A stretch of DNA of 64,000 nt from Saccostrea cucullata. Lineage: Eukaryota. The notes below the pieces were generated by a model that saw nothing but the letters and a program-made list of their open reading frames with translations, was not told the origin of the DNA and did not search any database. How positions within the stretch are numbered: the stretch's first letter is position 1; each line of letters begins with the position of its first letter. The position numbers were made by a program, and so were the translations under genes. Of the stretch, positions 1 to 52,469 are shown in pieces. The stretch lies in NCBI RefSeq assembly GCF_032062105.1, contig NW_026940900.1, positions 1 to 64,000 of the forward strand, given 5' to 3'.

Positions 1-2067
1 AAGTGTTTGCCAAGAAGGTAATCTATGTTAGAAATATATCTTTTGATTTACTCCTTGATATTCATTCAATGTGAACTGAAAAATTGTTATGTTTATTCTC
101 ATTCTTTAACACAATATTATGCTAATAAAAAAATAAAATATCTTTCCATATTGTTTGATTCCAATTTTAGATGTGAATGAATGCAGGAACTTTCCCTGTC
201 AAAACAATGGCGTGTGTACAAATTTTCAGGGAGGATTTGACTGTACTTGTAGGCCTGGGTTTACAGGAGCACTTTGTGAACTAGGTTTAACACTTATCTT
301 TATTATTTTCCCTTATAACAAGTTAACATACACTGTAAAATATTGGATTTCTTTTATTTGTTTAATTCTTAGGGGATTTAGGGGTTAGATGGGAATGAAT
401 TCTAATTTTTTACAAAAATGTGCTTACTTTTTGGCAGACATAAATGAATGCTTATCTGGACCTTGCAAAAACAATGTTCCTTGCGTCAACACACATGGTT
501 CGTATATATGCGCATGTGTGGATAATTGGGGTGGAAAGCATTGCGAAATAGGTAAGGAAACTTTCGAAACTTGCACCTTACCCCTTTCTGATATGAATTT
601 TTTTAAATGTATGTATTTGTAATACATATTCAAATTGATAGTTATTTTTCAGACTTGTGTTGGACAAAACCAGCCCAGTTAGTATTTGTTGTTGACACTT
701 CGCTCAGTACCACCGACAAAATACTTCAACAACAGAAAGACTTCATATCTGACGTCATTTCAAGAATTTCCCTCTCAAACGAAAAATTCAAAGTAGCGGT
801 AGCATCATATGGAACAAATACAAGCATCGACATTGGGTTCGATTCCTACCAAAACAATAAAACAGTACTGCTGGAGCACGTCTCCAAAGTTTCAGTCAGG
901 AATGGAAAAACGGACATTCATGACGCCTCATACAAGGTGAGAGATATCTTGAATGAAACCAAAGGGAGTAACCAGTTTGTCTTCTTCTTCACGGACGGGA
1001 TGCCAACTGATCTACAACTAGCTATAAATGGAACAGGGGAGTTACGAGCACGTTTGCTGAACTCTAGCTTTAATAATGCTTTGTTGTTCGTGGCTTTTGG
1101 TGAAGACGTAAGACATGAGGGTTTAAAAAGATTGTCTGGAGATCCACATTATGATGATGTTTTCACGCATACTTCCATGGATCCGATGTATTACGCGATG
1201 AAGAGACTGGTAGATAGAAAATGTACAGGTAATGTACATATATTGATTGAAATACCCGGGTATTTACATGTAACTATATATTTTGGAAAACAGTTTGACA
1301 AAAATATCACTATAAATAGTACATCCATTCATTTAACCGTACCTTTACAGCTGTATACACTCTTATTCTTTTGTATAAATTCACTTTTCTTCTTTTTATT
1401 TTTTCGACCTGTTTATCAATTTATCTTTTCAGCATGTTTTCATCAATTTATGGTGGATCTTATGTTCGTTATTGACGTATCTTCAATTCTACCACAAGAA
1501 ACATTCTCCGGTAGTTTAAGAGTCATCAACTCAATTTTAGAGCGCCTAAAACTTGTAACTTCTTTGGGACAAAATGAAACTCAATTTGGAGCTGTTTATT
1601 TTTCAAATGAACCTCACCTGTTAATGCACTTGAACGAGACATACGATTTTGATAGTTGTGCAAGCAGAATTATGGGAATAGAACAAGATTGCACAAGCTA
1701 TCGGAATTCCTCTACAAATGTAGCAAGAGCTTTGGAATTTACACGAACCCATCTTTTGTCCCCCGAACACGGTGCTAGAAATTCATCTCGAAAACTTCTG
1801 ATCCATATCTACACCGGATTTGATGTTAATATTACAGAGTCTGTGAAGGTGACACAGTCATTAACGAGGGACAATATTACCGTCTTTTCAATTGGAGTCG
1901 GAGACAAATACAAGGATGAAGACGTTTTATCTACTGCTTCCAGTGCATTTCATGCTTATTTTGCAGAATATACTGAAATGGACCAAAGCTGGAGGCTTAC
2001 AGACACAGAATTAAACTTTATTAGCAAGATATACTCAATACTTTGTACGGAGAGGGTAAATGCTTAA
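1..2067 (+). CDS. Gene A, 3' part: secreted EGF-repeat / double-vWA protein (fibropellin/notch-like EGFs plus two vWA). Exons <1-17, 171-284, 438-551, 653-1228, 1433-2067
   Basis: GT-AG phase-1 exons. Two 114-nt calcium-binding EGF exons (DVNECRNFPC..., DINECLSGPC...). First vWA has LVFVVDTSLS and FFTDGMP; second vWA has DLMFVIDVSS and ends CTERVNA*. The 5' part lies outside the window. Confidence 0.9.
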
Positions 2068-2623
2068 AGCATTCTTTAAAATCGCAGCGACTTCATTAAC
2101 TTGTACATTTATTGTCTTACAACTTCTTTGGAAAATGTTCAGAATATGTCTGAAAAAAAAGCAATAGCTTACAATAATTTCACAAATCAAGACCTTTATT
2201 TATTTATTGCATACTTATTTGTATTTTGAAATTATTATATTAAAATACTACTTTTCATTCAGCCTTTCCGATCAAAGTTTTACGTCGTTTGCAATATTGG
2301 TCGTCACATTAGTTTTTAACTCGCATGTTTTCTTGTCATCATTACAGTTTGTTCATGAATAATATGATAAGCGACACAGGTGTGTATAAATTTCCTACAA
2401 TCCATAATGATTAAACTTTCAGAATTTTCATGTAATTCTTGTTCTTTACAATAAAACCCTGAAAATAAATAGAAACACCAGAGGATAAAATGTTCAAAAG
2501 CCTTAAGAGGAAGTCAAAACCGATTTCGATCTGTTAATTAATAACGGGTGACATTAATTGCGTAATGTGGACTGTTGCAAAACCATCCTTCACTTAGTTA
2601 ATATTGTCTGATACAACTGTTTT

Positions 2624-3111
2624 TATTATACTTTCATGTTAAATACTAAAACATCAGACGCAGTTAACAATAAAATGTGACAACGGGTAACACAACGGTA
2701 ATGCCACATGCATGGAAATTATGCGCGTACGGTTCAGTAGAATTCTCAAAATGTCAGTTGCGCAAAACCGAATTAACTTGACGTCAATAAAAGCTTGCGT
2801 CCGATATAGCTTTACATGCTTGCAAGTGTAGGAAACATGCTTGCGAGCCAGAAGTAACGAAACTTTATATGATAAATGACTCTAATTCGAGTATCAAACA
2901 AAGAATAAGGAGATTAGTGAACCGGTGAGTGTGAAAGCTTTCTATACATGAACGTAAAGACGATCGACGGTTTTTTTTCATTCATTAGACATTCAGTATG
3001 ATAAAATCATTTACTTAATATTCAACCTCCGCTGACGCGTCGGTTGACAATGGTTTTCCTTGGGGTGTCAATTTCAAATGTTACCCTCCAAAACAGGCAC
3101 CATTTATATAC
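2624..3111. mobile_element. Non-autonomous element (Helitron-like, family unresolved) present only in duplication copy 1
   Basis: Empty site ACAACTGTTTT/GATTACTG at ~11640 in copy 2. Internal hairpin CAACCTCCGCTGACGCGTCGGTTG. Confidence 0.7.
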
Positions 3112-50238: not shown

Positions 50239-50293
<55 letters not shown>

Positions 50294-52469
50294 GTATATT
50301 TTTGTTATATATCAAATGATTTTTTTAATGTGATATTCTTTGAAACAGAAATCAATGTATGTAACAATGGTGATTGTTACAATTTTGATGGCGGGTTTAG
50401 CTGTGTTTGCCAAATATACACAGGACCACGCTGTGATACAGGTAATTGTAACATAAATGAAAATTGTCAAATATTCTTTGTGAAGTTATCAGTTTGCATA
50501 TATTTTTGCTTTTGTGGAAATATGTTCACATAGGGTTTTTTTACCATTTGGCATATGTTCGTCTTAATGTATTTTAGAAAAATAGAAGGCTTTCAATCTA
50601 TGCATGTTTTTGTTATTATCAAGTGATATGTTTAAATGATATTCTTTGAAACAGAAATCAATGAGTGTCTGCTTGATCCGTGCAAAAACAATGGCTCTTG
50701 TGTTAATATCCCAGGCTCGTTTTATTGTAATTGTTGAATGATTGGGTGAATGTGAATAAGGTGCATATACATATGTAAGTCAGACAAACAAATTCAAGTT
50801 CAATGTATTTCAATTTCTTGTGGGGAAAATACATATAAATCTGAAAATCTCAAACGACCATAAAGCAGCTATGACGCTCTTGACAATGGTAAGAATTTTA
50901 AATCAAAACTGAATGAAAATGAAATTCTTAACTTAATTTCAGATCTATGTAAAACAAACGCTACCAAGTTAATCTTCATGGTAGACAGTTCCTATAGTTC
51001 TTCGGGAGAACCGTTCAGAAAACAGTTGCAGTACATTACGGACGTTGTTTCACGAATCACCATTTCTGCAAGTAAATTTTCAGTAGCGGTTATCTCATAT
51101 GGAACAGAGGCGAGGGCAGACATTAATTTCAACTCTTACGAAAACAAAACGGAACTTCTTAGTTTCATTCAAAACATCACTTTTGTCAACGGAACAACTA
51201 ACATACCATCGGCCTGTATCGAGGTCAAAAGGATACTACAATTAACACCCAATGATTTTCAGTTTGTATTTCTCTTCACCGATGGCATGCCTACAAGTCT
51301 GAGTGCTGCAGTAGGTTCCATTGTCGATTTGAGAGGTTTCTTGAAATTATCAAATGAGTGGAATGACGTTTTCTTGGTGGCGTTTGGTGATGACGTCAGA
51401 CATGAGGGATTTAGGCAGTTATCCGGGGATCACCGATTCGGTGATGTGTATCCCAGCATTAATATGGAACCGCTGCATCAAGTCTTCAAGAAAACCGTAA
51501 ACATACGATGTTCAGGTATGGATCAGAATAAGCCGAAACCATTTTTTATTATAAATTGTTCTTAGAAAAGGCTTTTCTAAATGAATACCTTATTGGTACA
51601 GAAGCAGATCTGCTAATTAAATACCGTAAAATCACATATTTTTGTTGGGTCAAATTTTCGAGGTTTGAAGAAAAAATTCTTGTTTTGTGGACGGAAAAGT
51701 TAAGGTAGTAAAGCATATGAAATTTTAGATTTCCTGGTTTAATAAATTCGTGGGTTTCTCCATGCCTTGAAAGCATCGAAAATTAAACCGCCACGAAAAA
51801 AGTGATTTCACGGTAAATAATTTATTTTTTTTTTCAGCGTGTAAGGTAAGACGGGATAGTGATATAGTGTTTGCTCTCGACACATCAACCATACAATCGC
51901 AGACTACTTACAAAGCCAGTCTGGGTATCTTCGTACAACTTATGCAATCCATGGATGAATTCGTTTTCTTAGGATCTGAGTACGTTCAAATAGGCACCGT
52001 TCACTTCTCCGATACCGCATTGTCCTTTTTACCGTTGAATTTTACGACCGATTTAGATACATTTGCAAGTACTTTTCAAGCCGCAAAGCAAGACAACCGT
52101 AACAGTTCGTCAAGTCTTGCAAATGCTCTTCAATTCATCTGGCAAGAAATGTTCTCGGACAGACAGGGGGCTAGATACAGTGCTTTGAAGTACGTTGTTT
52201 TCGTCAATAATGGATTCGATATTAATATGACAGAGACTTATAATTTAGTAGAAGAAATGACAAAGGATGGAATTGCCTTAATCTCCATAGGCGTAGGGAA
52301 GAATTATAAGGACGGACAGGTTTTAAATACGGCTTCTAGTCCTTTCCATGCTTATTTTTCGGAACAGGATCGATCAACGAATCAGTGGACTTTGCAGGAT
52401 ACCGAGTTCGAATTCATCAAAAGACTAATTAATAGAAGGCTGGAATGCACAAACAGAGTGAATGCTTAA
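37189..52469 (+). CDS. Gene C: signal peptide - SMB - furin micro-exon - vWA - 16 intact EGF (plus ~8 broken EGF exons) - vWA - vWA. Exons 37189-37408, 37561-37605, 38994-39548, 40114-40224, 40310-40429, 40669-40779, 44150-44266, 44406-44519, 44655-44774, 44848-44964, 45064-45177, 45261-45374, 45617-45730, 46463-46570, 46649-46756, 46860-46973, 47072-47185, 47300-47413, 47762-47872, [damaged 48030-50760], 50943-51515, 51838-52469
   Basis: Signal peptide [34 protein letters not shown]...[17 protein letters not shown]; linker [15 protein letters not shown]. vWA with full MIDAS (DESGS, GGGT, LTDG); ends CTNRVNA*. Confidence 0.85.
41251..43020 (-). mobile_element. Internally deleted, frameshifted RTE-clade non-LTR retrotransposon in a gene C intron
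   Basis: GC-richer island. Peptides [44 protein letters not shown]...NRPS and [15 protein letters not shown] are typical of RTE/BovB-like ORFs. The RT core is missing. Confidence 0.82.
48030..50760 (+). pseudogene. Block of about 8 damaged or chimeric EGF exons within gene C, with a HINE fragment at ~48370-48720
   Basis: EGF-like exons at ~48030, 48349, 48841, 49167, 49377, 49578, 49820, 50349 and 50654 carry indels, stops or missing cysteines. Local duplication of 47912-48140 at ~48760-48970. Confidence 0.7.
49708..49770. repeat. (CT)n microsatellite (another at ~50239-50292)
   Basis: Direct reading. Confidence 0.95.
51622..51815. mobile_element. MITE (TA-flanked, Tc1/mariner-like)
   Basis: Terminal inverted repeats TACCGTAAAATCAC / GTGATTTCACGGTA. 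Confidence 0.75.

Follow-up and report, generated by a model that had tools for sequence, protein, structure and literature searches.

What kind of protein do the genes at this oyster locus encode, and what is the role of the short conserved tail with which they end? The locus lies in a stretch of 64,000 nucleotides from Saccostrea cucullata (the window; bases 1-64000 of contig C23037 in a 1.17-Gb assembly, 33.5% GC, zero N) and continues upstream on contig C10259. The genes stand in the order D-A-(A')-B-C and have a common part, a series of EGF modules followed by two von Willebrand factor A domains (vWA1 and vWA2). To this one of three types of N-terminal cap is added: NIDO in A and D, SMB in B and SMB-RRKRR-vWA0 in C, where vWA0 is an extra vWA domain. 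The family architecture is (NIDO, SMB or SMB-furin-vWA)-EGFn-vWA-vWA. None of these modules is unfamiliar, and shuffled vWA/EGF proteins are numerous in the genomes of molluscs; the family is therefore a bivalve variation on matrilin-like proteins, not a new kind of system. Distinctive are the constant end, whose tail has a fixed length, the exchange of three different caps and a predicted furin site that is conserved.

The initial annotation, made from the window alone, had described A, B and C as three paralogs with a terminal vWA pair, and each indeed has two vWA exons with Pfam VWA matches (E 1e-12 to 1e-23). That B and C both start with SMB also holds: each has a Somatomedin_B exon (E 1.3e-6 and 6.8e-8), and a genome search for SMB gave matches only in these two genes. 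However, the architecture proposed at that stage, SMB-(furin-vWA)-EGFn-vWA-vWA, is correct for B and C but not for A, which is NIDO-capped by exons on C10259. Paralog D, the partial duplicate A', two decayed B fragments and the indels in C, all described below, are additions to the initial annotation. The likeness of the two SMB domains to SBSPON is putative; in PDB they find weak matches only (EndoU, ENPP1/3, SUSD2; best E 0.004), with no SBSPON sequence among them.

The number of EGF modules ranges from 10 to about 31 per protein, and most are of the calcium-binding type (cbEGF): the consensus is present in 12 of the 17 intact EGF exons of B, 9/15 in C, 18/27 in D and 8/9 in A. A stop codon directly behind vWA2 ends A, B and C, which therefore lack a membrane anchor at the C-terminus. 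B and C have signal-like N-termini, and the proteins are predicted to be secreted. For the start codons of A and D there are several hydrophobic candidates. The genome contains at least four intact paralogs (A, B, C and D). Searches of it with the vWA2 of C and with a distant member gave the same six strong loci, followed by a score gap to ordinary vWA exons; 150 candidates were scored in each search and the counts are lower bounds. As first inferred, these are vWA/EGF proteins of extracellular type whose family has expanded among oysters.

Gene A is divided between two contigs (Table 1). C10259 breaks off partway through an EGF exon, which continues from window base 1 in the same frame, with neither gap nor overlap, to a GT donor at 18, so that the two contigs can be scaffolded. 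In total gene A has 10 EGF modules. Its Ostrea edulis orthologue, with NIDO and ten EGF, is collinear with both contigs: 9 of the 10 modules have their best match in the expected slot, while the fifth matched elsewhere, though its slot holds an exon. Upstream of the EGF exons of A, C10259 contains NIDO exons with E down to 3e-29. An SMB cap for A or D was considered and rejected, as C10259 270001-329957 holds no SMB match or motif, and NIDO exons instead. Just upstream of A on the same contig lies paralog D. It has NIDO, 27 regular EGF exons besides a few atypical ones, and ends in the vWA pair and the tail CTERINA. Within gene D (G000:C10259 303772-304586) an atypical EGF exon stands three to four times in tandem, the copies being near-identical; this is a recent exon amplification.

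As first described, vWA1 keeps the metal ion-dependent adhesion site (MIDAS) and vWA2 has lost it. In vWA1 of A, B and C the motif reads DTSLS, DSSLS and DSSYS, accompanied by the loop-2 Thr and TDGMP, and the complete set (DTSLS/DSSLS/DSSYS/DTSFS/DTSMS, NG-x-T, TDGMP) is found in 6/6 proteins examined. The vWA2 counterparts are DVSSI, DTSSV and DTSTI, with HIYTG, HTFTG and VNNG in place of TDG; the second Ser and the Asp of TDG are replaced in every aligned row, and the vWA fold is retained. The vWA2 domains of A and B are 35-39% identical to that of C.

The two domains adjoin through a tight C-x-A-C linker. Four conserved cysteines bracket them in all five full pairs examined, and the last cysteine is always located six residues from the end. 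One closing disulfide per domain is the common pattern in vWA domains, and the tail cysteine likely closes vWA2 as the disulfide partner of that domain's opening cysteine. Given this ordinary partner, the case for cross-linking through the tail cysteine, which the initial annotation had raised, falls. Nor is such a cysteine special: 77 of 150 vWA representatives have one within 12 residues of the end, and the four of the family would pair as domain brackets. Further, the loop-2 Thr in vWA1 of B, C, D and homologues is directly preceded by an N-G-T sequon; another sequon, L-N-x-T, is conserved in vWA2. Through glycans these sites could modulate ligand access.

The tails CTERVNA (A), CSNRINA (B) and CTNRVNA (C), each followed by the stop codon, were confirmed. 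In a profile search of 1.84 billion representatives 2172 matches were obtained, and the best 150 were examined. Eight of them are family representatives, that is, matches whose best stretch reaches the end of the profile and which have a terminal vWA2-type domain. The ending C-[TS]-x-R-[VI]-x-[ASTN] is present in 8/8 of these and in 0/142 of the others (best 150 of 2172). The match of P0138 reaches profile position 203, yet this is a vWA-fasciclin protein without the tail. Among 14 selected diverse rows, Cys, Arg and Val/Ile occur in all 14, Thr in 12, Asn in 10 and Ala in 9. Of the tail originally given as C-x-x-R-[VI]-N-A, the C, R, V/I and fixed length are therefore kept in wider homologues, but N-A varies (RVTA, RVRT, RINS, RVNS, RIRS). 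One cluster member, P0160, is annotated as extending past the tail.

Named members among the best 150 come from Saccostrea, Magallana gigas, Ostrea edulis and Pinctada imbricata, and two further lineages are ENA contigs. This range is a lower bound, since only the best 150 of the 2172 matches were covered and these are crowded by multi-vWA proteins. Orthologues of the A/D, B and C types are present in other genomes, and P. imbricata has one vWA-capped and one NIDO-capped member. In a tree of 24 domains, in which long branches meet near the root, all 18 tail-bearing vWA2 fall in one clade (100/99), and the oyster A/D, B and C types group together (95/99), apart from two Pinctada-containing lineages. 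The occurrence of both cap types in Pinctada hints that the caps have been reshuffled, or that the oyster C-termini have been homogenised.

The AlphaFold2 model of the last two EGF modules and the vWA pair of A (24 rows) has a predicted local distance difference test score (pLDDT) of 85, a predicted template modelling score (pTM) of 0.79 and two vWA folds; the AlphaFold model of the C vWA2 alone has a pLDDT of 90. In the former, the short strands 269-272 and 469-472 are the two ends of vWA2, and a helix spans 474-477; in the latter a helix is found at the tail (205-208). The proposal that the tail takes part in a strand swap was rejected, as in both monomer models it is a short low-confidence helix, not a strand. 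The best PDB match of the A pair, end to end, is mussel proximal thread matrix protein 1 (PTMP1; Foldseek E 3.6e-23; VIA Z 26.0, 350 aligned residues, root mean square deviation (rmsd) 8.2, 17% identity). Next come collagen VI and integrin I domains, with Z 22-24 and an rmsd of about 2.2 over one domain. In the ESM Atlas only generic vWA clusters were found.

The predicted furin site of C is encoded by an in-frame mini-exon. A 13-residue stretch of S. echinata record P0195 matches it, and an S. echinata record with the same 19-residue start as C shares the arrangement of RRKRR and an extra MIDAS vWA, so the predicted site is conserved in at least two species. Among the RNA matches listed there is no joint at this mini-exon.

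A second copy of gene C, at G000:C8820 9880-27674 (minus strand), is collinear with window 43268-64000 at 84-96% identity and is probably the other haplotype. Of the 18 EGF exons of C compared with it, 8 have small indels, all at about 48800-50770 and intact in C8820, and the other 10 have none inside the exon. Their clustering, and stretches apparently copied from neighbouring EGF exons, suggests an assembly error; alternatively, C may be a damaged allele. The terminal exons of the two copies show 21 synonymous and 11 non-synonymous differences, and a synonymous proportion (pS) of 0.16 against a non-synonymous one (pN) of 0.022 indicates purifying selection between them. A synonymous divergence of 16% is high for alleles. 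The C intron at 41250-43000 carries a GC-rich insert (44-51%) with broken minus-strand frames and no Pfam match, which we take to resemble a decayed non-LTR retroelement. In Magallana gigas, both models of the C orthologue (P0003 / P0163) have an unrelated N-terminus in place of SMB-vWA0, probably due to gene-model errors, and P0164, a transcript-derived member, runs on in EGF repeats.

In gene B the SMB exon is directly followed by EGF exons, 17 intact and one frameshifted (27433-27551). Two decayed copies of its vWA pair are located inside a 4.7-kb duplication (3112-7832 / 11643-16358).

RNA evidence comes from 7 of 24 runs and concerns genes B and C. For C, two runs have raw reads across the GT..AG joint between vWA1 and vWA2 (2 reads in one, 1 in the other), and a 1424-nt contig with the same joint reaches into the 3' untranslated region; a contig piece also spans vWA0. 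For B there are eight CT..AC joints among the matches listed, including EGF-vWA1 and vWA1-vWA2 (25805/26018, 26590/26729, 26842/26916 and 27032/27118 are among them), and the joint from SMB to the first EGF is seen in one run. Between reads and window there are differences of a few percent.

The present annotation does not reveal this family: C is split, A (NCBI model P0194) and B are partial, and the O. edulis model XP_056022050 fuses the counterparts of A and D into one. The partial duplicate A', probably a gene fragment, is annotated as von Willebrand factor-like with 287 aa. As foreseen, automatic names are generic (notch-like 3, cartilage matrix protein-like, MUP-4-like, matrilin-2-like, VWA2). 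The architecture also appears to be unnamed, as initially supposed: neither a description of it nor any of six family accessions was found in the main texts of the openly accessible literature searched.

How does the family relate to known systems? The closest structure, PTMP1 (PDB 4cn8/4cn9/4cnb), belongs to a secreted protein of another bivalve, the mussel, and likewise has a tight tandem of two vWA domains. Model residues 80-478 align to its chain residues 50-447, and one sequence-profile stretch crosses the linker. However, the identity is 15-17%, the rmsd is about 8-10 and the domain orientation differs in the model. PTMP1 has neither EGF rod nor NIDO/SMB cap, while the family has 10 to about 31 EGF modules before the pair, and both PTMP1 domains align with DxSxS-type motifs, whereas the MIDAS of the family's vWA2 is lost.

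Matrilins have the order vWA-EGFn-vWA-coiled coil. The secreted vWA plus EGF adaptor design is common to both, C contains vWA-EGFn-vWA, and pipelines call members cartilage matrix protein-like or matrilin-2-like. In contrast to matrilins, the chain stops six residues past the closing cysteine of vWA2, with no C-terminal coiled coil and no Matrilin_ccoil match. Further, the family has the extra terminal MIDAS-less vWA with the six-residue tail, far more EGF modules and the NIDO/SMB caps. VWA2/AMACO is vWA-EGF-vWA-vWA-EGF; the order vWA-EGF-vWA-vWA is also found in C and in Pinctada FSP39_004945, and an M. gigas member is automatically named VWA2. However, the family has long cbEGF arrays, variable caps and no EGF after vWA2, and the likeness is one of domain order.

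The start of A and D, putative signal peptide-NIDO-EGFn, is like that of SNED1 (NIDO-EGFn-Sushi-FN3), but the Pfam scan of the O. edulis record gave no Sushi or FN3, and the vWA-vWA end stands in their place. NIDO and SMB alternate as caps also in the MUC4/SUSD2/Mesh group (MUC4 vs SUSD2), which has an AMOP-vWD-transmembrane end and not vWA-vWA. Long calcium-binding EGF arrays explain why Notch and fibropellin give the top sequence matches and automatic names (K1QE52, notch-like 3). Unlike Notch, the family has no LNR, transmembrane or ankyrin region (Pfam scans; the stop directly follows vWA2), and unlike fibropellin it has no CUB or avidin domain in Pfam scans.

We consider it reasonably probable that the proteins are secreted, rod-shaped, matrilin-like bridging scaffolds in oyster matrix or mucus. 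The domain order, exon structure, cbEGF modules, bracketing cysteines, PTMP1 match, splicing of B and C, purifying selection and orthologues all point in this direction. In such a scaffold, calcium would stiffen the EGF array into a spacer whose length is specific to the paralog. Through its metal site vWA1 would bind a partner in the matrix, collagen-like or not, at an acidic residue; the metal-free vWA2 would support vWA1 or offer a second surface, and the cap would bind a different partner. In C, furin would remove the SMB, so that both ends of the rod would carry a metal-binding vWA. With vWA2 closed by the tail disulfide, the six residues beyond would come to lie beside the hinge between vWA1 and vWA2. 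There the invariant Arg and Val/Ile would most likely serve to clamp this hinge or to bind a partner that is itself conserved. Molluscan proteins of byssus, mucus and shell repeatedly contain vWA and EGF domains (PMC12817120, PMC9168380, PMC6337334).

Several observations speak against a bridging scaffold of this kind. Exon depth is mostly <2 in three raw-read runs, which is unlike a bulk structural protein in those samples. The N-G-T sequon in the MIDAS loop 2 of vWA1, present in most members, could hinder access of a ligand. The disulfide pairing of vWA2 is deduced from sequence and not taken from model coordinates. The tail has low confidence in both models (pLDDT of the last blocks 59 in A and 51 in C), with no docking site in cis predicted. 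Finally, Pfam scans find in the family no coiled coil or other recognised oligomer domain, unlike in matrilins.

The lack of an oligomer domain would also fit a different function of the tail, namely self-assembly: its C-terminal carboxylate or Arg-Val/Ile would dock into another molecule (e.g. the metal site of vWA1 or vWA0) and build chains or nets without a coiled coil. The fixed six residues after the cysteine, the invariant Arg and Val/Ile, the restriction of the motif to the family among the best 150 matches and the poor order of the tail in monomer models are consistent with this. Further, the termini of a vWA domain lie opposite the MIDAS face, and given this topology a six-residue tether would reach a MIDAS only in another molecule. 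However, the tail is a helix rather than a strand in both models, has no acidic side chain, varies in its last two residues (NA, TA, NS, RT, RS) and has a mean conservation of 0.67, only modestly above the 0.55 of the vWA2 body, so that we regard self-assembly as quite unlikely. An extended form of the idea is a long shot: a modular "ruler" family of pteriomorph bivalves, in which the disulfide-tethered six-residue tail would dock in a neighbour's vWA to give polymers without a coiled coil, while swappable caps (NIDO, SMB or furin-gated vWA) and EGF rods of set length would choose the partner and mesh size of an oyster cement, shell or mucus network.

Another reading, which we judge unlikely although PTMP1 is the closest structure, is that the proteins are specialised for the shell matrix or the cement of oysters and pearl oysters. 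PMC10225672 reports EGF families as expanded and tied to cemented attachment in Crassostrea hongkongensis, and according to bioRxiv 2023.01.19.524809 the oyster mantle shows a response of a secreted SNED1-like gene and of vWA/NIDO domains, which may or may not belong to this family. However, byssate Pinctada has members too, and none of the six family accessions occurs in the main text of the literature searched. The passages of PMC6337334 on the pediveliger-specific list name another vWA protein. Bridging, shell or cement use and polymerisation through the tail are not mutually exclusive. A role as soluble recognition proteins of mucosa or haemolymph, with caps and vWA domains binding microbes or food particles, is the least probable reading. 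Tandem duplication with decayed copies and varied caps do resemble oyster immune clusters, and vWA-, fibropellin- and matrilin-2-like transcripts are reported from oyster haemocytes in PMC13070813, though these too may or may not belong to this family. But the intact paralogs in the genome are few (four, a lower bound), the A/D, B and C types stay the same from one oyster genus to the next and are under purifying selection, and lectin and C1q domains are absent.

Catalogues of oyster cement proteins and of bivalve matrix proteins are poor, and under present annotation this family is invisible. Its diagnostic C-terminal motif allows members to be sought in RNA from tissues and in the proteomes of shell, cement and mucus. 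Should the tail prove to be an assembly signal, it would provide a new polymerisation route for vWA scaffolds, useful for the design of wet adhesives; otherwise the family is a tidy case of domain shuffling among familiar matrix modules.

Table 1. Features of the locus. Positions refer to the window unless a contig is given; tails are written up to the stop codon.
Feature	Position	Strand	Remarks
Gene A, 5' part	G000:C10259 about 316900-329957		NIDO, 7 whole EGF exons and start of split exon
Gene A, 3' part	1-2067	+	stop at 2067; tail CTERVNA
Gene A EGF exons	1-17 (end of split exon); 171-284; 438-551	+	
Gene A vWA1 exon	653-1228	+	MIDAS intact
Gene A vWA2 and tail exon	1433-2067	+	CTERVNA
Decayed B vWA1 (internal deletion) and vWA2 exons	3440-5130	-	stops, frameshifts; tail decayed to CSNRIKA
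A'	9803-11094	+	97% identical partial duplicate of A; begins inside vWA1 past DxSxS; vWA2 and tail intact
Second decayed copy of B vWA pair	11990-13660	-	
DDE_Tnp_4 (Harbinger-type) transposase fragment	20065-20469	-	Pfam E 2.3e-7
Gene B	35737 to 25177	-	tail CSNRINA
Gene B signal-like hydrophobic N-terminus and SMB	35737-35503	-	
Gene B vWA1	26590-26018	-	
Gene B vWA2 and tail	25805-25177	-	CSNRINA
Gene C	37189-52469	+	tail CTNRVNA
Gene C exon 1, signal-like hydrophobic N-terminus and SMB	37189-37408	+	
Gene C mini-exon, 45 nt, in frame, AG/GT	37561-37605	+	encodes 15 residues (RRKRR-S); predicted furin site
Gene C vWA0 (N-terminal, extra vWA)	38994-39548	+	canonical DESGS...TDG MIDAS; Pfam VWA E 5.3e-32
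Gene C EGF array, about 24 exons	40114-50770	+	15 regular intact, one atypical (about 46649-46756), 8 with indels
Gene C vWA1 exon	50943-51515	+	DSSYS, NGTT, TDGMP
Gene C vWA2 and tail exon	51838-52469	+	CTNRVNA

The window also contains satellite-like arrays at 5488-6026, 14011-14549, 16514-17060 and 61793-62840, with periods of 166-168 and 156 bases. Between A and B, in the 4.7-kb duplication, there are two near-identical intron-less DUF268 genes, at 6174-7301 and 14697-15821, both on the minus strand (Pfam E 1e-27). They are methyltransferase-like by their Atlas neighbours and have an N-terminal hydrophobic segment; possibly they encode a methyltransferase of Golgi type.

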